From NCBI GenBank assembly GCA_964387845.1, contig CAYLXA010000008.1, positions 1-64,000 of the forward strand: a DNA stretch of 64,000 nt. The letters run 5' to 3'. The translations under genes were made by a program, and so were the position numbers. This document shows positions 7,946 to 24,348 of this stretch, one piece after another. Under the pieces are notes generated by a model. It was not told where the DNA came from. It saw only the letters and a list, made by a program, of their open reading frames with translations, and made no database searches. Positions within the stretch are counted from its first letter, which is position 1. Every line of letters begins with the position of its first letter. The stretch is from an uncultured bacterium. GTDB lineage: Bacteria > Omnitrophota > Omnitrophia > Omnitrophales > Abzuiibacteriaceae.

Positions 7946-7965
7946 GACAGGCTCAGGGAGGCGTT

Positions 7966-8250
7966 ATGTGGAACGATAAACTTCGTCAGCATTATTGGTG
8001 GGCCGAAATCAACAGCCCGGCTGAGAAATTTCTTTATGAGCTCCGAAAAGCCGAGGACGAAGAAGATGCCGGCGTATATCTTTTGCAGCTTTATCTTAAT
8101 AATGAATCCGACCTTCATTTTTTTTCAAACAAAGACCGCCGCAGAATCTGCCAAATTTTAACATTCTTGATTCACGAAACCGAAAAGCACCGGACGATCT
8201 TGGCGCATTTGGCCGATGAGCTTGAAAAAAGGAGGGCGGGCCATGCTTAA
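7966..8250 (+). CDS. Hypothetical small protein (94 aa)
   Basis: Protein-like composition. Translationally coupled to the next small gene (ATGCTTAA overlap). Confidence 0.4.
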   Translation: MWNDKLRQHYWWAEINSPAEKFLYELRKAEDEEDAGVYLLQLYLNNESDLHFFSNKDRRRICQILTFLIHETEKHRTILAHLADELEKRRAGHA

Positions 8251-8488
8251 TAATCAGGTTAAAGACTTATGGCTGATTCGGTTCCGTAAAATCTATGATC
8301 TAGAGCGTGATTCATTCTATTTTTACCGCAAATTAATCAACAGCAACACAGAGCTTTTGCAGGATTCAGACGCGAGAAATATCCTGCGTAAGATTATGCG
8401 CGACGAACTCAATCATGCGCGCGCAGCATTAGAATTATTAAAAATTCTAGAAAACAGAAACGCTTCCAAAGAGGGCGGAGGCGCTTAG
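8243..8488 (+). CDS. Hypothetical small protein (81 aa)
   Basis: AGGAGG SD 6 nt upstream of the ATG at 8243. The track ORF starts at 8216 in the same frame. Confidence 0.4.
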   Translation: MLNNQVKDLWLIRFRKIYDLERDSFYFYRKLINSNTELLQDSDARNILRKIMRDELNHARAALELLKILENRNASKEGGGA

Positions 8489-8502
8489 AAACGAGGTGCG
8501 CC

Positions 8503-9216
8503 ATGCGCGGAACAGATATTTTTGAGTCTTATGTGGCGTGTCAAATTAAATCGCTGGAAAATACGGGCAAACAAAAAGCTGGAGTTGCAAGCCCGTTTGT
8601 AACCATATCCCGCCAAGCGGGAGCAGGCGGTATCACCATCGGAGAAAAGCTGGTCGCTTACTTATGGGAAAATGACAGGGGAAGCGGCTGCCCGTGGGCA
8701 ATTTTTGATAAGACTTTGGTAAACCGGGTTCTGGAGGAGCATCATCTGCCCGAGAAAATTTCACAGTACATGCCCGAAAGCAAAGTTTCGCAGGTGGATG
8801 ACATTATGGAAGAGCTTTTCAACCTGCATCCTTCCGAGTGGACATTAATCCATAAAACCAGCGAAACTATTTTGAAATTAGCACAAATGGGCAATGTCAT
8901 TCTGGTCGGGCGCGGCTCGAACATTGTCGCACGAAGCCTTGAAAACGGATTTCATGTCCGGCTGATTGCTTCACCGGAAAAAAGAATCGAGCATTTGCAG
9001 GAATATTACAAGCTTGACCGTAAAAGAGCGCTGAAATTTATGGAAAAGGAAGATAAAGGAAGGCGTGATTATGTGAAAGAATATTTTGATAAAAATATCG
9101 ATGATCCGCTCTTGTATGATTTGGTGATTAACACGGACAGGATCTCTTATGACCAAGCGGCTAAACTGATTGCCCGCGAAGTGCTTGAGATCAAAAAACG
9201 GATCTCATCACAGTAA
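8503..9216 (+). CDS. Cytidylate kinase-like family protein (PF13189-like)
   Basis: N-terminal ISRQAGAGGITIGEKLVAYL is the degenerate P-loop characteristic of the cytidylate-kinase-like family. 237 aa. Confidence 0.55.
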   Translation: MRGTDIFESYVACQIKSLENTGKQKAGVASPFVTISRQAGAGGITIGEKLVAYLWENDRGSGCPWAIFDKTLVNRVLEEHHLPEKISQYMPESKVSQVDDIMEELFNLHPSEWTLIHKTSETILKLAQMGNVILVGRGSNIVARSLENGFHVRLIASPEKRIEHLQEYYKLDRKRALKFMEKEDKGRRDYVKEYFDKNIDDPLLYDLVINTDRISYDQAAKLIAREVLEIKKRISSQ

Positions 9217-9231
9217 TTTGGCAGGGTTGAT

Positions 9232-10617
9232 ATGAAACAGCGGAATTTGCCGTCAACTTTTGGCAAGCACAGGCAGGTTATCTTATTTTTGATTGCGATA
9301 GCGGCTGCTTTTGCAGCTTATTTATTTTTACCTGCCGGCTGCCCCGAGCCGGCGCGCAGAGCTTCCGTTATTTTCATTGTCGCGGCTTTTCTGTGGGCAT
9401 TTGAGATTATTCCCCTCCACGCAACCGCGATTGTGGTTGTGTTGGCGTCTATTTTTCTACTTGCTTGGCCGGGCGGCGTTCTTGAAATGGATAACAACGG
9501 CTATCAAATTTTTCTAGCTCCGTTTGCCAATCCCATCATCATGTTGTTTTTCGGAGGATTTGTATTAGCCGCGGCTTTGCATAAGCACCACATTGACGAA
9601 TGGCTTGTCCAAAAACTGATCCGCATATTCGGAACAAAACCTTTTTGGCTTTTGCTTGGATTTGTCATGACGACCGGATTTGTTTCCATGTGGATCTCCA
9701 ATACGGCAACAACGGCAATGATGCTGACAATGATCACCCCAATTCTTGCGGATGAGAGGAATAGTCCAAAATTTAAAACCGCTTTGGCGCTGGCCGCTGC
9801 ATTTGCGGCCAATGTGGGCGGAATCGCAACGCCCGTCGGGACGCCGCCGAATGCAATTGCGCTCGGTATTTTATCTGACCGCAGCATTCATGTCAGTTTC
9901 CTTCAATGGATGATGATGGCATTTCCGCTCGCGGTATTTTTATTGGCGGCAACCAGTGTCACATTATTCTGGATGTTTGGAAGAAACCAAAAAAATGTTT
10001 TTATTCCGGAAATACAAGGTGCCGAGATCAATTTGAAATCAAAAAGCGCAGCTGTTATCGGCCTTTTGACTATTATTTTGTGGTTAACTTCAACTTGGCA
10101 CCATATCCCGGAATCTGTTGTAGCGCTTTTGGCCGTTGGTTTGCTGTCAAGCTTTCAATTAATTGATCACGACGATTTAAAAGGAATCGGGTGGGATATT
10201 CTGATTTTGATGTGGGGCGGTTTGGCGCTGGGCCGGGCGATTGAAATAAGCGGGCTGGGGAAATGGCTTGTCACGATGCCGGTATTTTCAGCGGAAGGGC
10301 ATATCTTAATAATCGCTTTCTCGCTTTTGACTGTTTTTCTTTCCATCGTGATGAGCAATACCGCAACGGCGGGCCTGGTGATTCCGATTGCGATGAGCGT
10401 CGGCACGGCCGACCCGGTTGTTTTGGCGGTTGTCATTGCTTTGTCGGGCTCTTTCGACATGATTTTGCCTGTTTCGACACCGCCGAATGCGATGATTTTT
10501 TCCACAAAAGCAGTTCGTTCGGTAGACATGCTGAAAGCAGGCGCTGCTGTCAGTGTAATCGCGCTTATTTTATTGCTCGCGGGCTATCCATTTTTTATCG
10601 AGAGGTTTTTGTCATGA
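9232..10617 (+). CDS. Anion permease of the ArsB/NhaD superfamily (SLC13/DASS-like)
   Basis: Duplicated TPPN hairpin motifs (ANVGGIATPVGTPPNAIALG and MILPVSTPPNAMIFST). 461 aa, polytopic. Confidence 0.65.
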   Translation: MKQRNLPSTFGKHRQVILFLIAIAAAFAAYLFLPAGCPEPARRASVIFIVAAFLWAFEIIPLHATAIVVVLASIFLLAWPGGVLEMDNNGYQIFLAPFANPIIMLFFGGFVLAAALHKHHIDEWLVQKLIRIFGTKPFWLLLGFVMTTGFVSMWISNTATTAMMLTMITPILADERNSPKFKTALALAAAFAANVGGIATPVGTPPNAIALGILSDRSIHVSFLQWMMMAFPLAVFLLAATSVTLFWMFGRNQKNVFIPEIQGAEINLKSKSAAVIGLLTIILWLTSTWHHIPESVVALLAVGLLSSFQLIDHDDLKGIGWDILILMWGGLALGRAIEISGLGKWLVTMPVFSAEGHILIIAFSLLTVFLSIVMSNTATAGLVIPIAMSVGTADPVVLAVVIALSGSFDMILPVSTPPNAMIFSTKAVRSVDMLKAGAAVSVIALILLLAGYPFFIERFLS

Positions 10618-11297
10618 AAAATTTAAATCAACTCCTAATTTTTTTTCTTTGTTTATCTGCTGCATTAACGATACCCGTGTATGCAGAAGATGATTTTCAA
10701 TATTGGTCTCGCTATTCCGTGAAAGCAATCGATACAAAATACATCGATTTTGTGAATTTCTGGGATTTGCGCTTTATGGAAGACTCATCGCGTCTCCGCC
10801 TGTGGTTTACAAGCCAAAAATTGCAAATCAATCCTGTTGAGTGGTTTGGCTTTGTGATTGCGCATACTTATCTCGAAAATTCTGCGGTCAATTCACAGAC
10901 CAAAACACGCGAATTTGTGTCTCAGCACAGGCTTGAATTGGAAGCCAATCCAAAATGGAAAGTTTCGCCTTGGCTGACGGTCAAAAACAGGAACCGGGTT
11001 GAATTCAGATGGATTGAAGACAAAGGTTCGGATAACACGCGAACGCGGCACATGGTTGAATTGGAGTTTCCGGTTAAAAAAAATCCGGTTGTGAAATCTA
11101 TTTACACAAACAGCGAAATTTTTGTCGATTTTAACCGCCATACAATTAATGAAAACCGCGCCATTCCGATCGGAATCAATTTTAATCTTTATAAAAAATC
11201 AACCTTCAGCATTTTTTACATGATTCAATCCCAAAAAGGCGCCCGGGATTGGTCATCGAATCAAATATTGGGAACCCAGGTGAGTTTAAATTTTTAA
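10614..11297 (+). CDS. Secreted / outer-membrane-type protein (DUF2490-like), function unknown
   Basis: ATG at 10614 overlaps the upstream stop (ATGA). The signal peptide MKNLNQLLIFFLCLSAALTIPVYA is followed by an aromatic-rich, beta-rich sequence. The track ORF 10263.. is an antisense-frame extension. Confidence 0.5.
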   Translation: MKNLNQLLIFFLCLSAALTIPVYAEDDFQYWSRYSVKAIDTKYIDFVNFWDLRFMEDSSRLRLWFTSQKLQINPVEWFGFVIAHTYLENSAVNSQTKTREFVSQHRLELEANPKWKVSPWLTVKNRNRVEFRWIEDKGSDNTRTRHMVELEFPVKKNPVVKSIYTNSEIFVDFNRHTINENRAIPIGINFNLYKKSTFSIFYMIQSQKGARDWSSNQILGTQVSLNF

Positions 11298-11308
11298 AGG
11301 GAATCATC

Positions 11309-12439
11309 ATGAGTTCAGGTTTTGATTTTTCAAAACGGCCGTTTTTGGTGATTTGGGAAACCACCAAGGCTTGCGGCCTCGCGTGCGTTCATTGCCGTGC
11401 GGAAGCCGATCCGAATCCAGATCCAGATGAACTGAATCATGAGGAAGCGCTCAAATTAATCCGTGATGTCAAAGAAATGGGAACGCCGATTTTGGTTTTT
11501 AGCGGCGGCGATCCGCTGCGCCGGAAAGACCTTCCTGATCTAATTCGCTACGCAAAATCTTTGAAAATCAGGACGGGCGCCATTCCGGCTGTGACGCCCG
11601 ATCTCACAAAAGAAAAAATTGTAGAGTTAGCTGAAAGCGGATTGTCGCAGATCGCTTTCAGTCTGGATGCGGCGGATCCGGTTGAGCATGATTCATTCCG
11701 CCGGACAACCGGTGTATTTGACAGGACCATTGAAAGCGTCAAGATTGCAAACGAGTTAGGTTTGAATGTTCAAATTAATTCTCTCGTGAATGTTCACAAC
11801 CAAGAGTCGCTTGATAAATTGATCAAGCTGATAGAAACGCTCAACATCGTGTTCTGGGAAGTATTTTTCCTGGTCCCGACCGGACGCGGAAAAGATTTGC
11901 CGCTTTTAACTGCTCAGAAATTTGAAGAAGCATTTCAGAAAATTTACGAACTAAACAAGCGCGTCCGCTTTGTAATTAAAGTAACGGAAGCACCGCACTA
12001 CCGCAGGTTTTATATCGAGCAGGAAATGAAAGCTGAAGAAGTTGACTTGCTTTCTATCAAAGACAGCCGCGTCGAACTTCCCGCGTTCTTAAGACGCAAA
12101 AGCGGGCCCAATGCCAGTATCGGCCACGCTCCGGACGGCGTTAATTCCGGAAAAGGGTTTATTTTTATTTCCAAAACCGGCGAAGTGATGCCGAGCGGAT
12201 TTTTGCCGATTCCGGCCGGAAATATCAGAAAAAAGCCGCTCTCCGATATTTACCAAAATTCGCCGCTTTTAATTGAATTGAGGGATGCCTCCAAGTTAAA
12301 GGGAAGGTGCGGGGCGTGTGAATATAAATACATTTGCGGCGGCTCGCGTTCGCGCGCTTATGCGCTTACGGGCGATTATTTAGCCGAAGATCCGAGCTGC
12401 GTTTACCAACCTGAAATCCTGAATTTAAAATATGCTTGA
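11309..12439 (+). CDS. Radical SAM enzyme with C-terminal SPASM domain (NirJ/AhbC/AhbD-like)
   Basis: Cx3Cx2C in PFLVIWETTKACGLACVHCRAEAD. A C-terminal Cys cluster CGACEYKYICGG...DPSC is typical of SPASM. ATG at 11309; the track ORF starts at TTG 11249. Confidence 0.8.
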   Translation: MSSGFDFSKRPFLVIWETTKACGLACVHCRAEADPNPDPDELNHEEALKLIRDVKEMGTPILVFSGGDPLRRKDLPDLIRYAKSLKIRTGAIPAVTPDLTKEKIVELAESGLSQIAFSLDAADPVEHDSFRRTTGVFDRTIESVKIANELGLNVQINSLVNVHNQESLDKLIKLIETLNIVFWEVFFLVPTGRGKDLPLLTAQKFEEAFQKIYELNKRVRFVIKVTEAPHYRRFYIEQEMKAEEVDLLSIKDSRVELPAFLRRKSGPNASIGHAPDGVNSGKGFIFISKTGEVMPSGFLPIPAGNIRKKPLSDIYQNSPLLIELRDASKLKGRCGACEYKYICGGSRSRAYALTGDYLAEDPSCVYQPEILNLKYA

Positions 12440-12519: not shown

Positions 12520-12957
12520 ATGTTTCAATTGTATTCGAAAGGTTGCGAATATGCCATTAAAGCACTGTCTCAAATGGAAGATCCCAATCAAAATTACAGC
12601 GCGAAAAACATTTGCCGGCGCGCGCGAATTCCGGAGTCTTTCTCAAGAAAGGTATTCCAGTCTCTTGTTCACGGCAGATTCCTCGAAGCCGTTCCAGGCC
12701 CCGGCGGCGGTTATCGTTTGCGGCAGAACCTTAAGGAAGTTTCCATTCTGGATATTATCCGCGCGGTAGACGGCGCCAAGGCATTTGACCATTGCATCAT
12801 GGGATTTGCAAGATGCAGCGAAAAAACTCCCTGCCTGCTTCATGATAATTGGCTGAAGGCGAAAAAACATTTGGTTAACGAACTAAGGGAAAGAAAACTA
12901 AAAGATCTAATCAGCATGACGCAGAAAAAAAGGAGGAATTCCAATGGTAAATTATAA
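12520..12957 (+). CDS. Rrf2-family transcriptional regulator (NsrR/IscR-like, three-Cys cluster)
   Basis: N-terminal wHTH MFQLYSKGCEYAIKALSQM...ILDIIRAVDG. Cys ligand cluster HCIMGFARCSEKTPCLLH. It overlaps the nosZ start by 14 nt. Confidence 0.8.
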   Translation: MFQLYSKGCEYAIKALSQMEDPNQNYSAKNICRRARIPESFSRKVFQSLVHGRFLEAVPGPGGGYRLRQNLKEVSILDIIRAVDGAKAFDHCIMGFARCSEKTPCLLHDNWLKAKKHLVNELRERKLKDLISMTQKKRRNSNGKL

Positions 12958-14989
12958 AAGATTATTTTTTCTCAGCATCATCGGGGTTGTTACGGTTTTT
13001 GCATTAACGGGTTCATTTGGAATCGGCGGGTTCGAAACGAAATCTCTCAATGCGCAATCGGTAGAACTGCCCAAAGAAACAATGGATGCGATTCGTGAGC
13101 GTGGCTTAAGCCCGGATGATGTTACCGCTGCTGTTTCTACCTTTATGCCGACCGGTAAATATGATGATTATGTGATGTTTGCCTCAGGCGGTCATAGCGG
13201 ACAAGTATTTGCCATCGGCATGCCTTCTATGAGGCTTTTACGTACTATTGCTGCTTTTACACCTGAGCCGTGGCAAGGATACGGCATTGGTGTTAAAGAG
13301 AACGCACTAGTGACAGCCGCAAAAGGATCTACTGATCGTCAACTTACCTGGGCCGACACACATCATCCGGCTCTCAGCGAAACAAACGGAGATTATGACG
13401 GACAGTTTTTATTTATTGGTGATAAAGCAAACGGACGGCTCTGTGTGATTGATCTTCGGGATTTTGAAACCAAGCAGATCGTGCAAAATCCGGTTGTGAG
13501 CAGCAATCATGGCGCAGCTTTTGTTCCGTCCAACACCGAATATGTATTGGAAGGCTCTCAATTTGCAATGCCGCTCGGCGGAGGCTACGCGCCGATTGAA
13601 GATTATCAAAAATCATACCGCGGTTTAGCGACATTCTGGAAATTTAACCGTGAGAAGGGACGCCTTGAAATAGAAAATTCTTTCGGAGTGGAATTACCGC
13701 CTTATTGGCAGGACCTTGCTGATTTTGGCAAAGCCGAAAGTGACGGCTGGGCGTTCATCAATTCCTTTAATACCGAAATGTCAACCGGAGGTGTTGAAGA
13801 CGGAAATCCGCCTTTTGAGGCCGGCACCTCCCAGCGCGATATGGATTATCTCCATATTATTAATTGGAAACAGGCGGAGAAGACAGTTAAGGAAGGCCGC
13901 GCAAAAATGATCAATGGTTTGCGCGTGATTCCGCTAGATGTGGCGATATCGGACGGCATTCTTTTCTTCGCGGCCGAACCCAAAAGCCCGCATGGTGTGG
14001 ATGTGACGCCGAGCGGAAAGCATATTGTGGTTGCCGGAAAACTGGATCCTCACGTCACGATTTATGGAATTGATTTAATTAAAACAGCTATTGAGAAAAA
14101 GGATTTTGAAGGAAAAGATCCTTTTGGTGTTCCGATTTTAAGATTCGACGCTGTCAAAAAAGCGCAGGTCGAACTCGGCCTTGGTCCTTTACACACTCAA
14201 TTTGACAACAAAGGCTATGCGTATACGAGTCTTTTTCTCGATAGTGCAGTGGCCAGATGGACTTTGGGTGACGATAAGTTTAAGGCGCCCGAAAAACCGT
14301 GGACGTTGGTATCAAAAACGCCGGTCCACTACAATATCGGACACCTTGCAGCCGCTGAAGGTGACACGGTAAATCCCGACGGTAAATATTTAGTTGCGCT
14401 TAATAAGTGGTCCGTTGACCGATTTTTGAACACCGGACCTCTGCTGGCTCAAAACCTTCAATTAGTGGATATTAGCCGTCCCGGCGATTCGTTGAAAATT
14501 CTCTACGATATGCCCATTGGCAACGGCGAGCCGCACTATGCTCAAATTATTAAAGCGGATAAATTAAGAACATGGGAGGTGTATCCCGAAGTTGGATGGA
14601 ATGCCGAAGAGCAGAAGAAAAGCACGGTAGCGGCCATGGAAGGAAAGGTGGTCAGAAGTCCGGGCAAGGTTGAAATTTACATGCCCGCGATCCGGAGTCA
14701 TTTTGACCCGGAGCGTGTGCGTGTCACGAAAGGGGAGAAAGTTATTTTTTACATCACCAATCTTGAACGGACACTTGATGCAACGCACGGATTCAACATT
14801 GCCGGCTACAACATTGCGGCCAGCATTGAGCCGGGCGAGACAGTAACCATTGAATTCATCGCGGACAAGGAAGGCGTATTTCCATTTTATTGCCTTGAAT
14901 TTTGCTCCGCTCTTCATTTAGAAATGGCCGGTTATTTGCTGGTCGAGCCGGTGCCTGCGGCCGTTCAGCGTGAGAAGAAAGGTAAATAA
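12944..14989 (+). CDS. nosZ: Nitrous-oxide reductase NosZ (clade II / atypical, Sec-type signal peptide)
   Basis: 681 aa. The signal peptide has no twin-arginine. Seven-bladed propeller region. C-terminal CuA cupredoxin motif FYCLEFCSALHLEMAGY. AGGAGG SD. Confidence 0.93.
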   Translation: MVNYKRLFFLSIIGVVTVFALTGSFGIGGFETKSLNAQSVELPKETMDAIRERGLSPDDVTAAVSTFMPTGKYDDYVMFASGGHSGQVFAIGMPSMRLLRTIAAFTPEPWQGYGIGVKENALVTAAKGSTDRQLTWADTHHPALSETNGDYDGQFLFIGDKANGRLCVIDLRDFETKQIVQNPVVSSNHGAAFVPSNTEYVLEGSQFAMPLGGGYAPIEDYQKSYRGLATFWKFNREKGRLEIENSFGVELPPYWQDLADFGKAESDGWAFINSFNTEMSTGGVEDGNPPFEAGTSQRDMDYLHIINWKQAEKTVKEGRAKMINGLRVIPLDVAISDGILFFAAEPKSPHGVDVTPSGKHIVVAGKLDPHVTIYGIDLIKTAIEKKDFEGKDPFGVPILRFDAVKKAQVELGLGPLHTQFDNKGYAYTSLFLDSAVARWTLGDDKFKAPEKPWTLVSKTPVHYNIGHLAAAEGDTVNPDGKYLVALNKWSVDRFLNTGPLLAQNLQLVDISRPGDSLKILYDMPIGNGEPHYAQIIKADKLRTWEVYPEVGWNAEEQKKSTVAAMEGKVVRSPGKVEIYMPAIRSHFDPERVRVTKGEKVIFYITNLERTLDATHGFNIAGYNIAASIEPGETVTIEFIADKEGVFPFYCLEFCSALHLEMAGYLLVEPVPAAVQREKKGK

Positions 14990-14997
14990 AAGATAAA

Positions 14998-17895
14998 ATG
15001 ACCGAGCAATCCCGAGGTCGAGAGTGGTTATTAAAAGTTTTGTTCCTTACGGGTATTGCGGCAATTCTTTTTTCATTTGCCTTTCCATACTGGCGAATCA
15101 AAGTGGTGGCGCCGCAGTACCCTAAAGGGCTCTCGATGGTTATCTATATCAACCGTTTGTCGGGCGATATTCAAGAACTGAACACGCTCAATCACTACAT
15201 TGGCATGCGGCATGTAGATGATGCCGCAAAGACTGAGCGAAAATTTGCGATTCCCGGTGTTGCCGTAGTTGTTCTTTCGTTATTTTCTGCAATGTTTTAC
15301 AAGGGGCGTTTTCGTTTCTTGCTGATTCTTCCTGCGGTTTTATTTCCGATTTTTTTCGCCGCCGATCTTTATTATTGGCTCCGTGATTCGGGCCTCAATT
15401 TGGATCCCAAGGCACCTTTGAATCGGTCCATCAAGCCTTTTATTCCGCCTGTATTCGGAGAAGGGAAAATTGCTCAGTTTAAAGCGTATGCACAATTTGA
15501 ATTTGGATTTTATTTGAACATGCTTTGCTCGTTTCTTTCAATTCTCGGGCTTATGTTTCAGAACAGGAGAAAAGTGGTAAGCCGGATCGTGAGTTGTATA
15601 TTCTATTTTTTATTTTTAGCACAGCCCATGCTGTATGCCGAAAATTTGGTTGTTTCCCAAGAAGGGCCGTATCGTGATCTTCAACAAGCAATCCATGCGG
15701 CGTCAAACGGCGATACAGTGATTGTCAAGGGAGGGGTTTACGCCGGGCCTTTTGTAATTGATAAATCTCTTCATTTAATCGGAGAGGATTTTCCGGTTCT
15801 GGATGGACAGGAAAAAGGAACCGTCGTTACGGTTAATGCTGATGACGTGCAGATCAAAGGATTTACCATTCGGGGAAGCGGCGACATTCTTTCGCAGGAT
15901 CAAGCCGGATTGTTGGTATCGGGAGCCCGCGCGCGTATCGAACAAAATCGATTTGAAAATGTGCTGTTTGGCATTGATCTGAAACGCGCACCGGAGAGCG
16001 TTATTCGTAAAAATTATTTGGAAGGAAAAATACTGGATGTCGCAAGACGCGGCGATTTGATCCGGATTTGGTATAGCGATAACGTCACAATCGAGGACAA
16101 TGTTACCATTGGCGGACGGGATGCCGTCTTATGGTTTTCAAAAAATCTGATCATTCGCGGAAATGAATTTTTAAAAGGCCGATACGGCCTTCATTTTATG
16201 TATTGCAACGATTCCGTGGTTGAAAACAACCGGCTTCAGAACAACTCGGTCGGTATTTACTTGATGTATAGCGCCCACATTCGGCTGACGCATAATCAAA
16301 TCATTCACAATCGAGGGCCCAGCGGATTCGGAGTGGGCTTCAAAGATATGGAACATTCATCGATTGAAGAAAATATTGTGGCGGATAACCGTGTGGGTTT
16401 TTTCATCGATCACGGGTCCGGGCACTATGAAAAAAATCTGATCGCATTAAACGATATCGGCATTCAAATGCTGCCAACAGCTTTGGATAATTCCCTCACA
16501 AAAAATAGTTTTATCGATAACGGTGAGCAAGTTTCGATTGACGGCATGGGCGGTTTCATGAAGAACCAATGGCAGGGGAATTTTTGGAGCGATTACCGGG
16601 GTTACGATCGAGATCATGACGGAGCGGGCGATATGGCCTATCAGGCTTTTAAGTTTTTTGAACGGTTAACGGATCGTTACGGTGCGCTCAAATTTTTCGC
16701 ATTAAATCCTTCAGTTCAAGCGCTCGATTTTGCCAATACTGCTTTTCCTATTTTTTCTCCAAAATCAAAATTTACGGATCCGTTGCCGTCCATCCATCCG
16801 ATTCTGCCGGCTTTTCCGGGTATGGAGCGAGAAATTTCTTGGCCGTTTCTTTTTGCTTCATTCTTTTTATTTCTTCCTCTACTTCTGATGCGCCGCATGC
16901 CGGCCTTCAACTTGTGTGCAGGCAGCGCGCAATTAATGTCAATAAAATCATCCTCGCTTGAATCTCAGGCAATTGATCCAATCCCAAACTTTATACCGAG
17001 TCGAAAGGCGGCAATCCATGTAAGCGGCCTCAACAAAAATTTCAGAAAACAAAACGCGCTGAAAGACCTGAATTTTGATATTCAAAAAGGCGAAACGGTG
17101 GTCTTGTGGGGCTCGAATGGTGCCGGGAAAACCACAGCGCTTCGCTGTCTTTTGGGGTCGGTCTCATTTGAGGGAAACGTATTTGTTTTAGGACACAATG
17201 TTAAAACAAACGGAAAGTTGGTGCGTTCGCATATCGGGTATGTTCCGCAGGAAATCAGGCTCTACATTGACCAAACCGTTCTCGAAATCGTTTCTTTTTA
17301 CGCGGCACTGAAAAGAGTTCCTCGGGCAAGAGTCAAAGAGCTGCTCAAGCGATGGGGGCTTTCGGAATTTGAAAACCGGTTCGTCAATCATCTTTCGGGA
17401 GGCATGAAGCAGAAGCTTGCGTTGGTGATCGCCTTACTGTCTGACCCTGAAATCCTTTTTTTGGATGAACCTACAAGCAATCTCGATCTGAAAGCGCGCC
17501 ACGAATTTTTAAGTTTTCTCACAGAGCTTAAACTCGAAGGCAAGACCATCCTGCTTTGTTCGCATTTAACGACAGAAGTGTGGCGTTTGGCGGATCGCGT
17601 GATCGTGCTCGACCAGGGCGAGAAAATCTCGGAAGGCCTGCCGGAGTCTGTCAGGCATTTTCTCGGCGGATCGACAGTTTTATTTTTGGCAGTTTCGGAG
17701 AAAGACGAAAAAAGAGCGCTTGAACTCTTAAAATTTAAAAATTTTCAAGCGGAGTTGAATCATGCCGGCATTATGATTCATGTATCGCCGGACAAAAAAA
17801 TGGAACCCTTTCGTGTTCTACAGGAGGCCGGCATTTCAGTCCTTGATTTTGAAGTGGGAAATGAAACTAATCAGAAGAGAAGCGGGCATTCATGA
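14998..17895 (+). CDS. nosDF: Single 965-aa ORF fusing a NosB-like polytopic membrane domain (aa 1-185), NosD (periplasmic parallel beta-helix Cu-insertion protein, aa about 186-630) and NosF (ABC ATPase, aa about 647-965)
   Basis: No stop codon across 2.9 kb. The internal Met at 15553 is followed by the signal-like MFQNRRKVVSRIVSCIFYFLFLAQPMLYA-EN. PbH1 repeats (NNRLQNNSVGIYLMYSAHIRLTHNQIIHN). A TM segment FLFASFFLFLPLLLM lies before the Walker A GSNGAGKTT, the ABC signature LSGGMKQKL and Walker B ILFLDEPTSNLD. Confidence 0.8.
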   Translation: MTEQSRGREWLLKVLFLTGIAAILFSFAFPYWRIKVVAPQYPKGLSMVIYINRLSGDIQELNTLNHYIGMRHVDDAAKTERKFAIPGVAVVVLSLFSAMFYKGRFRFLLILPAVLFPIFFAADLYYWLRDSGLNLDPKAPLNRSIKPFIPPVFGEGKIAQFKAYAQFEFGFYLNMLCSFLSILGLMFQNRRKVVSRIVSCIFYFLFLAQPMLYAENLVVSQEGPYRDLQQAIHAASNGDTVIVKGGVYAGPFVIDKSLHLIGEDFPVLDGQEKGTVVTVNADDVQIKGFTIRGSGDILSQDQAGLLVSGARARIEQNRFENVLFGIDLKRAPESVIRKNYLEGKILDVARRGDLIRIWYSDNVTIEDNVTIGGRDAVLWFSKNLIIRGNEFLKGRYGLHFMYCNDSVVENNRLQNNSVGIYLMYSAHIRLTHNQIIHNRGPSGFGVGFKDMEHSSIEENIVADNRVGFFIDHGSGHYEKNLIALNDIGIQMLPTALDNSLTKNSFIDNGEQVSIDGMGGFMKNQWQGNFWSDYRGYDRDHDGAGDMAYQAFKFFERLTDRYGALKFFALNPSVQALDFANTAFPIFSPKSKFTDPLPSIHPILPAFPGMEREISWPFLFASFFLFLPLLLMRRMPAFNLCAGSAQLMSIKSSSLESQAIDPIPNFIPSRKAAIHVSGLNKNFRKQNALKDLNFDIQKGETVVLWGSNGAGKTTALRCLLGSVSFEGNVFVLGHNVKTNGKLVRSHIGYVPQEIRLYIDQTVLEIVSFYAALKRVPRARVKELLKRWGLSEFENRFVNHLSGGMKQKLALVIALLSDPEILFLDEPTSNLDLKARHEFLSFLTELKLEGKTILLCSHLTTEVWRLADRVIVLDQGEKISEGLPESVRHFLGGSTVLFLAVSEKDEKRALELLKFKNFQAELNHAGIMIHVSPDKKMEPFRVLQEAGISVLDFEVGNETNQKRSGHS

Positions 17896-18713
17896 ATATT
17901 TTAATTATCTCGGGAAAAGAAATTCGTGACGCGATGCGAAATAAGTGGTTTCTTTTAATTTCGCTTATTTTTGCGGGCCTTTCGCTTGCGTTCAGCATTT
18001 TGGGCGTCTCAGGCCTCGGCAATTTGGGTATTTCCGGTTTTGGGCGTACGACGGCAAGCCTGATTAATTTGGTGCTTCTCATTGTTCCGTTGATGGGGCT
18101 TCTTCTGGGCTCGATCAGCCTTTCCAGTGAAAAAGAGCACGGAACCTTGCGCGCTCTTTTGGCTCAACCGGTAACACTCGGAGAGATTTTTATCGGAAAA
18201 TATTTTGGCGCAGTCGTTGCGCTTTCGGCTACTTTGTGTGTTGGTTTTGGGTTGAGCGGAATTGTAATCGGAATTTATGGCGGTTGGGAGCAGCTCAGCA
18301 GTTATTTGGGGCTTTTGGGTTATACCATTCTTTTAGCAATTGTGTATTTGGGAATCGGATTTTTTATTTCGGTTTTTTGCCTCAAGATGATCACAGCCAT
18401 CGGTGTTTCGCTTTTTCTTTGGTTCCTGTTTGTTTTTCTGAGCGATCTTGGGATTATGGGCACCACCGTTGCTCTCAATCTGTCATCGAGAGATTTATTG
18501 TGGATTGTTTTAAGCAATCCTGCGCAGTCTTTCAAAGCCGTGGTGATTGGAATTTTGCAGGGCGACCTTGATATTTTAGGCACACTCGGGCGCTACGCCG
18601 TCGATGTACTGGGCGATCAATTTATATGGGCGTTGAGCGGGATTTTATTTATCTGGGCCGCGGCCCCGTTTTTATTGTCACTTTTATTTTTTAAGAAAAG
18701 ATACGGTGAATAA
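17892..18713 (+). CDS. nosY: NosY, ABC-2 type permease of the NosDFY complex
   Basis: 273 aa with six TM helices. ATGA overlap with the NosF stop. It sits between nosF and nosL. Confidence 0.8.
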   Translation: MNILIISGKEIRDAMRNKWFLLISLIFAGLSLAFSILGVSGLGNLGISGFGRTTASLINLVLLIVPLMGLLLGSISLSSEKEHGTLRALLAQPVTLGEIFIGKYFGAVVALSATLCVGFGLSGIVIGIYGGWEQLSSYLGLLGYTILLAIVYLGIGFFISVFCLKMITAIGVSLFLWFLFVFLSDLGIMGTTVALNLSSRDLLWIVLSNPAQSFKAVVIGILQGDLDILGTLGRYAVDVLGDQFIWALSGILFIWAAAPFLLSLLFFKKRYGE

Positions 18714-19174
18714 TGATTCTCCCACGGGCTGTTTATCTGATCGTCGGCATTGCAATGCTAATCGTCGGCTGTTCTCCGTCGGCAGAAACAAAACCGCCAA
18801 AAATTCGCTATGGACATGATAGCTGCGGAAATTGTCACATGATTATCTCAAGCGCGCCATTTGCGGCAAGTTTGGCGACGCGGGATGAAATGTATCACAA
18901 GTTTGATGACATCGGCTGCATGCTTCATTTTATTCAATCACGAAATGACATAGCTGAAATTTGGGTGAATGATTATGCAACACAACAGCCGATCAAAGCT
19001 CATTACGCTTTCTATATAAAAGAAGCCGATCAGCGGACGCCGATGGGGTATGGCATTTTGGCGTTTGCCACAAAGGAAAGTGCGCAAAAAATAGATAGGG
19101 CCCGCGTGCTTAGTTTTGATGATCTGTTAAAACAGTTTAATGAACCAAAAACTGAAGGAGGAGTCAATCCATGA
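18713..19174 (+). CDS. nosL: NosL copper-chaperone lipoprotein
   Basis: Lipobox LIVGC. The CGNCHM / MYHKFDDIGCMLHF segments are typical of NosL. TAATG overlap with nosY. Confidence 0.75.
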   Translation: MILPRAVYLIVGIAMLIVGCSPSAETKPPKIRYGHDSCGNCHMIISSAPFAASLATRDEMYHKFDDIGCMLHFIQSRNDIAEIWVNDYATQQPIKAHYAFYIKEADQRTPMGYGILAFATKESAQKIDRARVLSFDDLLKQFNEPKTEGGVNP

Positions 19175-19884
19175 AAAAAATAATCGTTTTAATTTGTTTG
19201 ATTGCGGCAGTGGTTATCGTTTGCCCGTTTTCTGTTTACGCCGGCGGAACTTTGAGTGGAAAAGTTAATTTTGTAGGAACCGCTCCGGCCCCAAAACCAG
19301 TTAATTTTGGCCCGGAAAAGCAGTGTGCCATTGCGCATGGCGATAAACCGCCTATGGATGAAACCATTGTGGTGAATTCAAATAATACGTTGAAAGATGC
19401 GCTCGTTTACGTCAAGGAAGGCGCAACCGGCCAATTCGAAGCGCCGAAGACACAGGTCTTGATTGATCAAAACGGATGCATTTTTACTCCGCATGTTTCG
19501 GTGGCCATGGTGGGCCAGGAGGTAGTGTTTAAAAATAGCGACACACTTTTACATAATGTGCGTACGGTATCGACAGTTAATAAGGTTTTTAACATTGCGC
19601 AGCCGATCCAGAATATGACCACCAAGAAAACTTTCGCGTCTCCGGAAATCGGAATTCAGCTCAAATGCGACGTGCATTTCTGGATGCTGGCATATTTGCA
19701 TGTTGTCAACAATCCGTATTATGCAGTCACAGGTGAGGACGGTTCGTTTACGATTCAGGATCTTCCGGCCGGTACTTATACCGTCGAAGTTTGGCACGGA
19801 AAGTTGGGAGCACAAACTCAATCCATTACAATAGCCGAAGGCGAATCAAAGTCCGCTGATTTTTCTCTCGAGAAAAGAGACTAA
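19171..19884 (+). CDS. Secreted type-1 copper cupredoxin (amicyanin/plastocyanin-like ligand spacing) with a C-terminal beta-sandwich extension; candidate electron donor to NosZ
   Basis: Signal peptide. His (TLLHNV), then about 45 aa later C-x2-H-x2-M (KCDVHFWM). C-terminal GSFTIQDLPAGTYTVEVWHG carboxypeptidase-regulatory-like fold. ATGA overlap with nosL. Confidence 0.6.
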   Translation: MKKIIVLICLIAAVVIVCPFSVYAGGTLSGKVNFVGTAPAPKPVNFGPEKQCAIAHGDKPPMDETIVVNSNNTLKDALVYVKEGATGQFEAPKTQVLIDQNGCIFTPHVSVAMVGQEVVFKNSDTLLHNVRTVSTVNKVFNIAQPIQNMTTKKTFASPEIGIQLKCDVHFWMLAYLHVVNNPYYAVTGEDGSFTIQDLPAGTYTVEVWHGKLGAQTQSITIAEGESKSADFSLEKRD

Positions 19885-19911: not shown

Positions 19912-20391
19912 ATGGGAAAGATGGGTACCATTTCCGAATTTTTTGAAAAAGATCACAACAGATTGGATAATTTGTTTAAACAATTTCAAGCAAATAAATC
20001 TCAAGATTTTAATTTTGCGAAAAGTTGTTTTAAAGAATTTATGTTTGGACTCAAGCGCCACATTGTTTGGGAAGAAGAAATGCTTTTCCCTATCTTCGAT
20101 GAAAAAACAAGTATGAAGGATTCGGGGCCGACTGCCGTGATGCGTTTCGAGCATGATTTAATCAAAAAGGAACTGGACAATATTCACAAAAAAGTAAAAG
20201 CAGGCCAAACTAATACTGAAAATGAAGAAGCGTCTCTTCTTGAAATTTTAGTGCAGCACAACAGCAAAGAAGAAGGCATTCTTTATCCGGCCATGGATCA
20301 AATGCTCGCACAATCTGAAGTGAGCGGAGTTCTTGAAAGAATAAAAAAAACGTTAGCAGAACAGCAGCCATCTTGCTGTGACCTGCCTTAA
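19912..20391 (+). CDS. Hemerythrin-like HHE domain protein
   Basis: DHNRLDNLF, LKRHIVWEEEMLFP and FEHDLIKKEL give the H...HxxxE pattern. C-terminal CCDLP. Confidence 0.65.
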   Translation: MGKMGTISEFFEKDHNRLDNLFKQFQANKSQDFNFAKSCFKEFMFGLKRHIVWEEEMLFPIFDEKTSMKDSGPTAVMRFEHDLIKKELDNIHKKVKAGQTNTENEEASLLEILVQHNSKEEGILYPAMDQMLAQSEVSGVLERIKKTLAEQQPSCCDLP

Positions 20392-20403: not shown

Positions 20404-21999
20404 GTGAAAAAATTATTATTAACCACCGTCTGTAAACCGCTTGGGCCGAAATACGGCGATTCGGAATCCGTAGGCTACGAGTTGCTTCACGGGCAGGTTA
20501 CGCGCGCTCAAGGAATTTTCTCGCTGCGCTCCGTAATTCATCACTTTTCACTCGAATACATCGCTCACAATCTTGAAACACCGACGGTTGTGCTGCAATA
20601 TCCATCCGAAAAAGAATTTATCCGAGAGCTCAAGAATAACAAGTACGACTTTGTTGGCATTTCATTTGTTTTGAGTACGCTGCATCATATGAAGCGGATG
20701 TCAGCACTTGTTCGAAAATTCTCGCCAAATTCAAAAATTATTCTGGGCGGCTACGGAACAGTTCTGTCAAACGAAGAACTTGAGCCCTACGGCGACTTTA
20801 TTTGCAGAGAAGAAGGAATCGGATTTTTGAGAAGAACTTTGGGCGAGCCGGAACTTCCGATGCCGTATGATCATCCGGTCATCACAAACGGCCTCAAGGT
20901 GTTTTCGCTTCCGGTGGGCAATAACGGCATGATTTTCGCGGGCCTTGGCTGTCCGAACGGCTGTGATTTTTGCTGTACGTCGTACTTTTTCAAACGCAAA
21001 CACGTCCGGTTGTTACCGGAAGGTGATGATATTTTTCATGTGATTCAGAAATACCGCAGGCACGATCCAAAAATCAAATTCACTGTGTTGGATGAAGATT
21101 TTTTGCTTAATCAAAAACGCGCGCGAAGGTTTCTAGATTTGGTACGTTCATCAGGCGAAGCGCCGCCTTCTATGTTTGTGTTCGGGAGTATCAAGGCGCT
21201 TTCACAATACGATATCCGAGAGTTACTTGAAATGGGTGTAACAGGTGTTTGGATCGGTTATGAAGGCCAACGTTCGGGGTATGCAAAACAACAGGGCCGG
21301 AATCCGGCGGAGCTTTTCCGGGAATTTCGGGAATATGGAATTAATATTTTGGCATCAATGATCATCGGTTTTGATTACCAAACACCGGAAATTATCGAGC
21401 AGGAACTCCGGGGATTAATGGATCTCCATCCCACATTTTCTCAAATCCTGATTTACGGCCCGACGCCCGGAACACCATTTTATGATCGAATTCAGAAGGA
21501 AAATAGGTTAGTGCCGCATCTTCAAACGGATCGCGACGCATACTATAAGAAATGTACCGGATTTTACGGGATGGTTCAGCACCCGACGTTAACGAGCGAA
21601 GAATTGCAAGCGCTGCAGCGGAAATGTTTCGACACCGACTTTAAAACGCTCGGACCATCGCTTGTACGCGCAGTGGAGAATTGGTTCTTGGGATATCAAA
21701 AGTTGATTCATGACAAAAGTGAAGTTCTAAGAAAACGCGCGGAGATGTATAAACAGGATATTTTGGAATCACTTCCTGTATTTTTAAGCGCAAAGATCCT
21801 GGGGCCATCGGAAGAAGCGCGCCTGTATGCGCATGATCTTTATAAGAAAATTACAATGAAGTTTGACGTTAATCTTTTACAGAATGCTATTAAATCCTGG
21901 TCAGCCCTTGCCATGGCGCACTGGACAGCGCTGTGCCTTAAAATGGATTGGTTTCAACATCCGCGCTTGACCCGGCTTGAATTTCGAATACAACATTAA
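20404..21999 (+). CDS. B12-binding-domain radical SAM protein (class-B-like)
   Basis: GTG start with an AGGAG SD. N-terminal cobalamin-binding-like region (FVGISFVLSTLHHMK...ILGGYGT). Cx3Cx2C in GLGCPNGCDFCCTSYF. Confidence 0.75.
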   Translation: MKKLLLTTVCKPLGPKYGDSESVGYELLHGQVTRAQGIFSLRSVIHHFSLEYIAHNLETPTVVLQYPSEKEFIRELKNNKYDFVGISFVLSTLHHMKRMSALVRKFSPNSKIILGGYGTVLSNEELEPYGDFICREEGIGFLRRTLGEPELPMPYDHPVITNGLKVFSLPVGNNGMIFAGLGCPNGCDFCCTSYFFKRKHVRLLPEGDDIFHVIQKYRRHDPKIKFTVLDEDFLLNQKRARRFLDLVRSSGEAPPSMFVFGSIKALSQYDIRELLEMGVTGVWIGYEGQRSGYAKQQGRNPAELFREFREYGINILASMIIGFDYQTPEIIEQELRGLMDLHPTFSQILIYGPTPGTPFYDRIQKENRLVPHLQTDRDAYYKKCTGFYGMVQHPTLTSEELQALQRKCFDTDFKTLGPSLVRAVENWFLGYQKLIHDKSEVLRKRAEMYKQDILESLPVFLSAKILGPSEEARLYAHDLYKKITMKFDVNLLQNAIKSWSALAMAHWTALCLKMDWFQHPRLTRLEFRIQH

Positions 22000-22008
22000 G
22001 GAGAGAAA

Positions 22009-22281
22009 ATGGATTTTAAGGTTATGATCGCTTCTTTTACCGCAGTATTTCTGGCCGAAATTGCGGACAAAACGCAATTGGTGGGGATTGGGCTCGCGTC
22101 AAAATCGATGAAGCCTCTTTCCGTTTTGGCTGGATCAGTGCTAGCCTATCTTTTGATCACAACTTTCTCGGTATTTGCCGCCGCAGCACTTGGTAAATAC
22201 ATTCAACCGAATCATCTCCGCTACGCCGGATCCATTTTGTTTATCGTGATGGGTATTTTGATGTTTTTTGATAAACTGTAA
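22009..22281 (+). CDS. UPF0016 (GDT1/TMEM165) single-repeat cation-transporter-family membrane protein
   Basis: E-x-G-D-K-T-like signature EIADKTQLV plus three TM helices. 90 aa, suggesting a half-size unit that dimerises. Confidence 0.55.
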   Translation: MDFKVMIASFTAVFLAEIADKTQLVGIGLASKSMKPLSVLAGSVLAYLLITTFSVFAAAALGKYIQPNHLRYAGSILFIVMGILMFFDKL

Positions 22282-22303
22282 TCCGGATCAGGACTCATTC
22301 AAT

Positions 22304-23554
22304 ATGAAATCTTCTCTCTCGAAATTCGGAAATCTTTTTTGTAACGAACCTTACAGAATTTTCTTTCCGCTCGGCGTGTTGGCCGGTGCTATCGGTGCCA
22401 GCCACTGGCTTTTTTACGCACTCGGTTGGGCTGAGCGTTATTCCGGATTTTTTCATTCCGCGATCCAGATGAAATGTTACATGATGTGTTTCGTTGTCGG
22501 CTTTCTTATGACGGCAATTCCTCGATTTGCTTCCGCTCCAACCGCAACAGGAAGGGAAGTTTTGATATTCATCCTGCTCATCTTTATCAACATTAGTTTC
22601 TTATTCCGAGAAAATTGGATCGGATCAGAAAGTACTTTCATTGCTTACTTAGTATTTTTAGCGCGTTTTATCGTTGTTCGTTTTATTAACAAAAAGGGAA
22701 ATGTAAGTCCGCCAACTGAATTTGTCTGGATTGGGATTGGAATTGTCCACGGAATTATTGGCTCAAGCATGGTTTTGCTCGGCCAGTTTTCAATTGGGCC
22801 TGTGTGGTTCGCAAAAGCAGGTAAAGCTATGAGCGAGCAGGGATTCTTGCTTTCCGTGGTCGTGGGCGTCGGCGGTTTCTTGGCGCCGCGCCTCATGGGA
22901 AATTTTTCGCTGATTAAACCGGAAGAAGTCCGGAAATTGGCTCAGGACAAAAAAACCAGGCGGAACAGAGTTTTCATTCATCTGACGGCCGGATTGATCT
23001 TATTCGGAAGTTTTTGGCTCGAAGGAATGAATCAAATGCAAACCGCTTATTTAATACGGGCATTGGTTGTTACTTTCGAACTGGTTTTTACGCGTGTCTT
23101 ACCGCGTTTCCCGGTTGTCAAAACATTATTTAGTTGGCTTTTATGGATTTCGATGTGGATGGTTCTTGCCGGAAGCTGGGCTGCGGGCTTATTGATTCCT
23201 TACAGAATCGGCATGCTGCATATTGTTTTTATCGGCGGTTATGCGTTGATGACATTTACGATCGGCACAATGGTTGTCTTGAGCCATGGCGGGGAAGGGC
23301 CAAAATTACAGCGCCCGATTTTTATCCTCAAATTAGTCGGACTTGGAATGCTCGCAGCGCTCGCAATCAGAATCGCCGCCAATTTTACGGCGGAGCATTA
23401 TTTTGCGTGGCTTGGGGCTGTAGCGGCTATGTGGCTTGTGGTTGGCGCAGGATGGCTGTGTTTTGCGGTTCCGAAAATTATGAAAATTCCGGCTGAAGGA
23501 GAGTTTGAACGCCAGCACGAGGAAGCAAAGCGAAAATTACACCAGCCTTGCTGA
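22304..23554 (+). CDS. nnrS: NnrS-family membrane protein (haem-copper membrane protein of denitrification clusters)
   Basis: Polytopic, about 12 TM helices with conserved His residues. N-terminal EPYRIFFPLGVLAGAIG resembles the NnrS N-terminus. The start is assumed at the ATG at 22304 within the track ORF 22268... Confidence 0.5.
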   Translation: MKSSLSKFGNLFCNEPYRIFFPLGVLAGAIGASHWLFYALGWAERYSGFFHSAIQMKCYMMCFVVGFLMTAIPRFASAPTATGREVLIFILLIFINISFLFRENWIGSESTFIAYLVFLARFIVVRFINKKGNVSPPTEFVWIGIGIVHGIIGSSMVLLGQFSIGPVWFAKAGKAMSEQGFLLSVVVGVGGFLAPRLMGNFSLIKPEEVRKLAQDKKTRRNRVFIHLTAGLILFGSFWLEGMNQMQTAYLIRALVVTFELVFTRVLPRFPVVKTLFSWLLWISMWMVLAGSWAAGLLIPYRIGMLHIVFIGGYALMTFTIGTMVVLSHGGEGPKLQRPIFILKLVGLGMLAALAIRIAANFTAEHYFAWLGAVAAMWLVVGAGWLCFAVPKIMKIPAEGEFERQHEEAKRKLHQPC

Positions 23555-23628: not shown

Positions 23629-24348
23629 ATGACGTGGTTTCCTCAGGATGTCTCGGAAAGCGGATATTGGGTTGACCGGCTTTTTTATCTTGGGTTTTGG
23701 CTGACCAGTATCACGTTTCTCTTGGTAGTCGGTATTCTAATCTATTTTGTCCTGCGGTACCGAAGCCGCGAGGGCCGGAAAGCCTACTATACGCACGGCA
23801 ATAGCCGGCAGGCGTTTCTGCTGACGCTTTCCCTGGCGCTTCTCGTTTTTGTTGTGATTGACGTGAACCTTGCGATTCATGATCATTTTGCGTGGGAAGC
23901 CATTTGGGGCGAATCAAAAGAGCACGAAGATCCAATCCGTGTTCAAATTATGCCCGAACAATTTGCGTGGAATATCCGCTACGCGGGCCCCGACAGTCAA
24001 TTCGGGACGGATGATGATATTGTGACTATCAACGACCTTCATATTCCGGTTAATAGGCGCGTTAATATTGCGCTCAAATCCAAAGATGTTATTCATAGTT
24101 TTTTTGTTCCCAATTTTCGCGTAAAACAAGACGCCTTGCCCGGAATGGTGACTCATATTTCACTCCACGCAAAGAAAAACGGAAAGTTTGATATCGCTTG
24201 CGCGGAACATTGTGGCCTTGGCCATTACAGAATGAGGGGTAGTTTGACGGTTCAAACTCAACAAGAATTCGAATCATGGCTTTTGGACCCGAATGGGAAG
24301 CAAGCCGGCGCTCAAAATTGGGGTTGGGAATGGGGAGTGCTAAAATGA
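23629..24348 (+). CDS. coxB: Cytochrome c oxidase subunit II (CuA)
   Basis: Two N-terminal TM helices. CuA ligands H...CAEHCGLGHYRM. GGAG SD. Confidence 0.85.
   Translation: MTWFPQDVSESGYWVDRLFYLGFWLTSITFLLVVGILIYFVLRYRSREGRKAYYTHGNSRQAFLLTLSLALLVFVVIDVNLAIHDHFAWEAIWGESKEHEDPIRVQIMPEQFAWNIRYAGPDSQFGTDDDIVTINDLHIPVNRRVNIALKSKDVIHSFFVPNFRVKQDALPGMVTHISLHAKKNGKFDIACAEHCGLGHYRMRGSLTVQTQQEFESWLLDPNGKQAGAQNWGWEWGVLK

Follow-up and report, generated by a model that had tools for sequence, protein, structure and literature searches.

In a 64,000-nucleotide (nt) stretch of contig CAYLXA010000008.1 (GenBank assembly GCA_964387845.1), which stems from an uncultured bacterium of the Omnitrophota and is called the window throughout, three genes of the nitrous-oxide reductase maturation machinery, nosB, nosD and nosF, share one stop-free open reading frame (ORF) encoding 965 amino acids (aa). 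The gene is a genuine fusion of three neighbouring accessory genes of a clade II nos cluster, kept by selection, and we consider it highly probable that it is translated through both of its junctions. The NosB, NosD and NosF modules all come from known families, and the system works like NosDFYL. In the complete explanation that we favour, and to which we assign a probability of about 0.55, signal peptidase I would cut the chain between NosB and NosD after its insertion into the membrane.

An earlier note on this DNA had described an uninterrupted 965-aa ORF over 2.9 kb and proposed that it encodes a real fusion protein with a self-consistent in-out topology. The frame indeed runs from 14998 to 17895 without a stop, a length far above chance expectation, and a Logan contig from an independent assembly codes for exactly the same 965-aa protein. 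A relative with 88% identity, located on a 136-kb contig of another metagenome (JGI 3300028648), displays the same gene order. The codon alignment of the two genes contains a single gap, at the extreme C-terminus, and neither junction carries an indel or a stop. Differences at the first, second and third codon positions amount to 17/4/58 in NosB, 29/15/112 in NosD and 27/13/108 in NosF; this dominance of the third position is a signature of purifying selection in the modules. The junctions are more relaxed, with aa identities of 68% and 78%, the latter across the D-F linker, and still in frame, the linker being free of indels.

The same architecture recurs far beyond this pair. A search over 5.8 billion proteins returned 487 matches, and all of the best 120, which were analysed, combine NosD and ABC_tran in one chain of 775-1300 aa; apart from the two closest relatives, they are only 41-58% identical to the query. 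The NosB motif described below is present in 117 of these 120 proteins, twice in 15 of them. The comparison with relatives that the earlier note had named as a check thus yielded the same fusion, both in the collinear 88% relative and in these homologues, and its main proposal is borne out. Its description of the architecture as unusual holds with respect to characterised systems; in metagenomes the architecture is common. The fused homologues stem from Planctomycetota, Ca. Omnitrophota and Ca. Poribacteria, and the names they carry at NCBI and JGI are only 'NosD' or 'nitrous oxidase accessory protein', so that the fusion is widespread in public sequence data and masked by the 'NosD' annotation.

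Against this background, it can hardly be credited that the long frame is a sequencing or assembly artefact, or a decaying pseudogene, produced in this assembly only by lost stops or compensating frameshifts. In favour of such an origin, B, D and F are separate genes in about 42 of 80 species loci, and indel errors do occur in assemblies of metagenome-assembled genomes, for example in the broken B ORF of locus L038. It would, however, have to account for an identical ORF in a second assembly and for the recurrence of the fusion in the 88% relative and over 100 diverged proteins of NCBI, JGI, ENA and Logan origin, findings by which we consider an artefact ruled out. Decay, in turn, is at odds with the purifying-selection signature of the modules and with catalytic motifs that are all intact.

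The fusion gene and its parts are as follows, with nucleotide positions given for the window and residue numbers for the 965-aa protein.

14998-17895, + strand: nosB-nosD-nosF fusion ORF, 965 aa, ATG start, stop-free
14998-15567, + strand: NosB module, aa 1-190, with transmembrane (TM) helices at aa 11-29, 83-101, 107-125 and 169-187 and a beta-sheet formed by two conserved loops in the periplasm
15187-15207, + strand: LNHYIGM, the published NosB signature motif, aa 64-70, exact and invariant in three alignments
15562-15639, + strand: internal segment resembling a Sec signal peptide, aa 189-214, with n-region RRKVVSR, a 12-residue h-region and c-region QPMLYA
15565-15576, + strand: AGGAG plus GTG, a candidate internal start; AGGAG (15565-15569) lies in the Arg-Arg-Lys codons of the n-region and GTG (15574-15576) is codon 193; not conserved
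15640-16797, + strand: NosD module, aa 215-600, a periplasmic right-handed beta-helix
16834-16893, + strand: TM6, aa 613-632, an out-to-in anchor after NosD, followed by Arg-Arg; helix 615-633 in the model
16894-17004, + strand: cytoplasmic linker from the NosD anchor to NosF, aa 633-669, disordered
17005-17862, + strand: NosF module, aa 670-955, an ABC ATPase with a C-terminal domain, matching Pfam ABC_tran and PDB NosF 7o0y_B (E = 3e-33)
17110-17133, + strand: Walker A, GSNGAGKT, G705-T712
17392-17415, + strand: ABC signature, LSGGMKQK, L799-K806
17452-17469, + strand: Walker B, ILFLDE, I819-E824

A Kyte-Doolittle scan finds six hydrophobic segments in the fusion ORF (aa 11-29, 83-101, 107-125, 169-187, 193-215 and 613-632), the last of which reads FLFASFFLFLPLLLM. 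The diagnostic features that the note had listed for each segment, from the four-TM N-domain through the signal-like helix, the beta-helix and the TM helix to the ATPase motifs, were all recovered. In an AlphaFold model of the full-length protein, with a mean predicted local distance difference test (pLDDT) of 85.8, the NosB, NosD and NosF modules are each confident. Profile hidden Markov models, by which the note had thought the domain borders could be set, fix those of NosD (TIGR04247, aa 228-599); for NosB there is no curated model and for NosF no specific NCBIfam model.

The N-terminal domain is the least conspicuous part of the protein in database searches: its first ~190 residues match nothing in Pfam or NCBIfam, even at E = 10. 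Clade II nosB is defined by its position directly after nosZ and encodes a polytopic protein with 4 (or 6) TM helices, which carries the motif LNHYIGM and, ~68 residues further downstream, the motif YGHN (PMC9697520); in Wolinella succinogenes, NosB is reportedly indispensable to N2O respiration (Hein et al. 2017). Because the domain follows a Sec-type nosZ, has four TM helices, which appear in both structure models, and contains an exact LNHYIGM, we call it NosB. The site of the second motif is at the expected distance, 67 residues away here and 68 in Flavobacterium. The domain differs from the published NosB proteins in that there is no separate gene and in that YGHN is replaced by SGLN (aa 131-134); relatives have YGLH, FGLH or YGLN at this site, giving a family consensus of [SYF]GL[NH] in which only the Gly is invariant. 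In the syntenic relative L002, where NosD and NosF are fused, the space between this fusion and nosZ is taken up by a gene of its own, whose 189-aa product shares 60% identity with aa 8-193.

An alignment scan with this N-domain, using one genome per species, returned at least 598 matching stretches, of which the best 80 loci were classified; the species of the window lies outside these 80, and all counts of loci out of 80 refer to this set. In about 60 of the 80, the homologue has a gene to itself that follows nosZ immediately, as expected for NosB from its definition. A profile search over 1.84 billion representatives puts the size of the family at 1,143 members (E <= 1e-3).

The NosB model is a four-TM bundle with an extracellular beta-sheet built from loops 1 and 2, as in the Claudin/TARP/PMP22 superfamily, and Foldseek retrieves with it only TARP and claudin entries (E = 3e-4 to 1e-2, TM-score about 0.5). 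Neither a sequence homology nor a signature of claudin, TARP or PMP22 was detected in Pfam searches to E = 10 or in the structural alignments, where identity is 10-18%. On these two grounds NosB was not filed as a member of the superfamily. Its predicted fold is that of a claudin/TARP-like tetraspan, a fold-level resemblance to auxiliary membrane subunits and not homology; the comparison with the Claudin, TARP-gamma and PMP22 tetraspans and with the maturation factor DUOXA1 is thus a structural analogy drawn from a predicted model at 10-18% identity. LNHYIGM sits on a periplasmic helix of this model, where it contributes His66 and Met70, the sole invariant His and Met of the module. No motifs of the heme or Fe-S type were found in NosB.

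The NosD module is readily identified. It exceeds the TIGR04247 cut-off of 300 with 394.9 bits, aa 228-599 covering profile positions 1-376 of 377; both Pfam NosD and Beta_helix match it, and aa 244-596 align with residues 48-419 of the 436-residue NosD chain 7o0y_A in PDB (E = 4e-31). The model shows a continuous beta-helix with pLDDT >90, preceded by a Sec-type signal sequence and framed by TM segments of opposite orientation. The ATPase module is NosF, as it sits between NosD and nosY and matches P. stutzeri NosF: the ABC_tran match spans aa 688-827 (E = 3e-31), and the top 5 Foldseek hits include the NosF chains 7osf_B, 7o14_B and 7o0y_B, aligned over about 288 columns with the C-terminal domain included. 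Across 72 homologues, the columns of the Walker A, signature and Walker B motifs do not vary.

An insertion specific to the fusion would be one reading of the TM helix that lies between NosD and NosF. This reading is rejected, since unfused NosD already possesses it: a C-terminal hydrophobic helix followed by basic residues is present in 40 of 43 loci with split D and F genes (L003-L082, e.g. L004, L006, L007 and L016). The solved NosD of P. stutzeri lacks such a helix and ends 17 residues past the homologous region. From these sequences, NosD in NosB-type clusters is predicted to be a bitopic membrane protein; a C-terminal anchor on clade II NosD was not described in the literature searched, mostly outside subscription journals. 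With TM6 as the native NosD anchor, a fusion of D to F required nothing but the loss of a stop codon. The same logic extends to the other joints. The C-terminus of NosB lies in the cytoplasm, as does the n-region of the NosD signal peptide, and the same is true of the C-terminus of NosF and the N-terminus of NosY. Since the joined termini faced the cytoplasm already when unfused, each fusion needs only the loss of a stop codon and of the intergenic spacer, and all observed fusions are topologically neutral. Between anchor and ATPase, pLDDT falls below 50 at aa 631-669, in keeping with a disordered linker.

A single frame could still give rise to several proteins, with NosD starting from M186 or GTG193 and NosF from M647 by internal initiation, the first and last of which (15553 and 16936) the note had offered as its alternative. 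In favour of this, AGGAG lies 5 nt upstream of GTG15574, ahead of the signal-peptide-like sequence, and the homologous position in L002 is the true start of NosD-F, with AAGGAG. The 88% relative, however, has TCG (Ser) in place of the GTG and AGGAAA in place of the Shine-Dalgarno (SD) sequence, and AGGAG is a product of Arg-Arg-Lys codons in a protein where an SD core precedes 3 of 60 in-frame internal start codons by chance. Of the two Met codons, ATG15553 (M186) is conserved in the relative and ATG16936 (M647) reads CTG (Leu) there; neither is preceded by an SD sequence. NosF has also lost its own start. Of 45 split loci, 41 have a start with an SD sequence at the NosF core, mostly an ATG at module position +3, and an SD plus start within 35 codons is found there in 11 of 27 fused loci, none of which belongs to the window's clade; in the window itself, the D-F linker and the NosF start site contain no SD-plus-start, and the canonical codon is GTA. 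With unconserved starts, SD sequences at chance level and a NosF start missing throughout the clade, we reject internal initiation as very unlikely.

In L002, nosB (7439-8008) ends 8 nt inside the nosD-F gene (8001-10328), and AAGGAG precedes the ATG of the latter by 8 nt. The AGGAG-GTG of the window, at the equivalent place, may be a remnant of a fission or the precursor of one.

The segment that connects NosB to NosD is more than the signal-like helix noted before. Its homologue in the NosD-F protein of L002 is a true N-terminal signal peptide, and it appears as the former Sec signal peptide of NosD, with all the features of a cleavable one and its cleavage site kept: a putative signal peptidase I site, LYA|ENL, falls after Ala214, between nt 15639 and 15640. 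In 101 fused proteins, position -1 is A86/G7/S5 and hence A, G or S in 98, and position -3 (L33/A31/V11/S10/G8/T3/I3) carries a permitted residue in 99. Pro, Ser and Thr abound at positions -4 to -6. These are fixed-column statistics, the only ones that count here, as a looser window scan for (-3, -1) would find sites by chance in most sequences; the corresponding comparison of fused with split signal peptides took in only 5 split sequences. In the model, pLDDT drops below 50 at aa 206-212, within the c-region. Given that small residues at -1 and -3 and a Pro/Ser/Thr c-region have been conserved despite 41-58% overall identity, cleavage is likelier than its absence, and signal peptidase I would then cut after Ala214 and release NosB with TM5 from NosD-TM6-NosF. 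The covalent B-D-F chain envisaged before would accordingly hold for D-F, whereas the B-D link may not last in the mature protein.

The favoured explanation would then run as follows. A single chain would be translated from ATG14998 and cross the membrane six times. Starting from a cytoplasmic N-terminus, TM1-4 of NosB would place both conserved loops in the periplasm; the chain would then make a short basic turn in the cytoplasm and cross in-to-out through TM5, which was once the signal peptide of NosD. The NosD beta-helix would fold in the periplasm, the native NosD anchor TM6 would return the chain out-to-in, and a linker of about 38 residues would lead to the NosF ATPase in the cytoplasm. 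After membrane insertion, NosB with TM5 still attached would be freed from NosD-NosF, making the B-D fusion a device for 1:1 co-translation and co-insertion. NosD and NosF would stay covalently joined in a 1:1 ratio, so that each F2Y2 transporter would have two NosD. Together with NosY and NosL, the fusion protein would constitute an ATP-driven machine in which, by analogy with established knowledge of NosDFY, Cu(I) would pass from NosL to NosD and on to apo-NosZ.

It is quite possible, if in our judgement not probable, that the fusion is instead fully covalent, TM5 acting as a permanent signal-anchor and an uncleaved six-TM NosB-NosD-NosF chain dimerising with NosY2. All evidence for the fusion applies equally to such a chain, and permanent tethering would agree with the occurrence of NosB as B-D-F-Y and B-NosL. 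Moreover, signal peptidase rarely cuts polytopic bacterial proteins internally. On the other hand, it is not obvious why a plain TM anchor should require small residues at -1 and -3, a c-region rich in Pro, Ser and Thr and an h-region of just 12 residues, features that have been kept at 41-58% identity and that match the genuine signal peptides of split NosD.

Several further points weigh against the explanation with cleavage and 1:1 stoichiometry that we prefer. The case for cleavage is built on motif conservation, and Ala at -1 could have been conserved for the fold of NosD instead. The fusion model has a predicted template-modelling score (pTM) of 0.49, so that its inter-domain arrangement is unreliable. 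The name NosB was assigned by position, TM count and motif, the Wolinella protein being matched by its description. Finally, a covalent D-F chain imposes a ratio of 1:1, as the B-D-F-Y chain of Armatimonadota imposes 1:1:1:1, which conflicts with every solved NosDFY entry. PDB holds 16 NosD chains in 16 entries, 30 NosF chains in 15 and 34 NosY chains in 17, indicating that the solved complex is D1:F2:Y2. The P. stutzeri structures concerned (PDB 7O0Y and related) are reportedly those of Müller et al. in Nature in 2022. Either two NosD serve each transporter in NosB-type machines, or one of them stays unused.

The P. stutzeri NosDFY system has in common with the one described here a beta-helix NosD, the ATPase NosF, the permease NosY and the operon neighbours nosZ and nosL. 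There, the subunits are separate polypeptides in a D1:F2:Y2 complex, NosD is without a membrane helix, the reductase belongs to clade I (Tat) and NosB is absent; here, D and F form one chain (1:1), NosD is TM-anchored and NosB is attached upstream.

Joined subunits are familiar from other ABC systems, such as half-transporters that unite a transmembrane and a nucleotide-binding domain, or importers that carry the substrate-binding domain on the permease (GlnPQ, OpuA). As in these, the nos fusions link subunits of one machine and thereby fix stoichiometry and proximity, and the B-D-F-Y proteins of Armatimonadota (L023, L026 and L035) resemble them in forming complete 'half-machines' in one chain. 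They differ in that the periplasmic partner is joined to the ATPase by its own TM helix and not to the permease, an arrangement for which we know of no characterised example.

Among nos proteins themselves, fusions of NosB to NosL are known from Dyadobacter fermentans and, as 'NosB-L', from Flavobacterium azooxidireducens (PMC9697520). Like the present fusion, they tie NosB to a copper-handling protein of Nos maturation and point to a role of NosB in copper management; unlike them, it has NosD-NosF as the partner, and NosD is the commoner choice. In the best 150 of the 1,143 NosB representatives, NosB is fused to NosD in 36 and to NosL in 2, the architectures being 25 B-D, 10 B-D-F, 1 B-D-F-Y, 2 B-NosL and 1 B-B. 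The recurrent fusion of NosB to NosD, NosD-NosF and NosD-NosF-NosY is Rosetta-stone evidence that places NosB in the copper-insertion machine, and we infer that NosB is an integral auxiliary subunit of the NosD/NosDFY assembly and not of an electron-transfer chain. Tentatively, and less probably than not, NosB might be a claudin-like subunit that docks NosD on NosFY in a symmetric (B-D-F)2Y2 assembly, or (B-D-F-Y)2 in Armatimonadota, with His66 and Met70 as a periplasmic Cu(I) hand-over site. If so, docking and Cu(I) hand-over would explain the role of NosB, and two membrane-tethered NosD would serve each transporter, unlike in the asymmetric D1F2Y2 complex of clade I.

NosB also occurs in tandem before NosD-NosF, in the proteins P0003-P0031 (about 1149 aa) and in L014 (5486-8962, Poribacteria). 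In the second copy, the motif has degenerated to LNRDIGM, with Arg in place of His and Asp in place of Tyr.

The 80 species loci were classed by which modules share one stop-free frame. Apart from the loci with fully separate modules, D is fused to F next to a separate B in 17, and B-D-F fusions are found in 3 (a Planctomycetia metagenome-assembled genome, Fimbriiglobus and Poribacteria). A further 3, all from Armatimonadota, have B-D-F-Y, while D-F-Y (L043) and B-D occur once each. In the Armatimonadota loci, NosB-NosD-NosF-NosY occupies a single frame of about 1280-1340 codons (L023 2079-5912, L026 2484-6446, L035 5821-9828), and in L024 (Planctomycetia) NosY and NosL seemingly share a stop-free frame; the assignments for L023, L026, L035, L043 and L024 are read from stop-to-stop frames.

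In a rough neighbour-joining tree of the D and F modules, calculated without support values, the window falls into a clade whose members all have D fused to F and mostly B as well, and which includes Planctomycetia, Fimbriiglobus, Poribacteria and the Armatimonadota with Y fused too. Fusion of all three modules is confined to this one clade, and L002 appears to represent a secondary split of B. D-F fusions are scattered over the tree, leaving a single origin of all fusions unsupported. Fusions of the types NosB-NosD-NosF, NosD-NosF and NosB-NosD-NosF-NosY were not described in the literature searched, which mostly excluded subscription journals and is therefore weak evidence.

To our knowledge, NosZ is the only known biological N2O sink, and organisms of clade II (Sec-type) are major N2O consumers. 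The value of these results lies less in the single locus than in what the fusion family says about NosB and about how clade II NosDFY is built. Neither the D1:F2:Y2 architecture nor the soluble NosD known from Pseudomonas would be universal: in NosB-type clusters, NosD appears to be membrane-anchored and is often encoded in one chain, 1:1, with the ATPase. As the fused proteins are labelled 'NosD', surveys of the presence of nosB and nosF will count too few of them in Planctomycetota, Omnitrophota, Poribacteria, Armatimonadota and Chloroflexota. In practical terms, the fused proteins offer a handle on the machine, with one gene, a fixed stoichiometry and a ready-made construct for cryo-electron microscopy.

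The locus is a Sec-type (clade II) operon in the order Rrf2 regulator, nosZ, nosB-nosD-nosF, nosY and nosL, and the fusion gene is tightly packed between its partners.

12520-12957, + strand: Rrf2-family regulator gene, overlapping the nosZ start by 14 nt
12944-14989, + strand: nosZ, the nitrous-oxide reductase that the machinery serves, Sec-dependent (clade II), TIGR04246 820.5 bits (cut-off 625)
17892-18713, + strand: nosY, ABC-2 permease partner of the fused ATPase, matching Pfam ABC2_membrane_2 and PDB NosY 7o0y_D (E = 1e-24)
18713-19174, + strand: nosL, copper chaperone lipoprotein, matching Pfam NosL, lipobox IVGC

Only 8 nt separate the nosZ stop from the start of the fusion ORF, and the stop of the latter overlaps the nosY start by 4 nt (ATGA). 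The Rrf2-family gene, which probably encodes the regulator of the nos operon, also overlaps nosZ in L002 and L083, and by 4 nt in L084. The closest named relatives of NosZ are from Ca. Omnitrophota, with 70-75% identity.

Directly after nosL lies a gene (19171-19884) for a secreted protein of 237 aa that carries a CarboxypepD_reg domain at its C-terminus, syntenic in L002, L083 and L084, which may be an extra accessory protein specific to this nos clade. The nos genes are flanked by genes for a radical-SAM/SPASM protein (11249-12439), a hemerythrin (19912-20391) and a B12-binding radical-SAM protein (20404-21999), and these three stand beside the cluster again in L002 and L083. Just downstream of the nos region follow NnrS (22268-23554) and COX2 (23629-24348), and then a 790-aa ORF (24276-26648) in which COX1 and COX3 domains are united in one chain.

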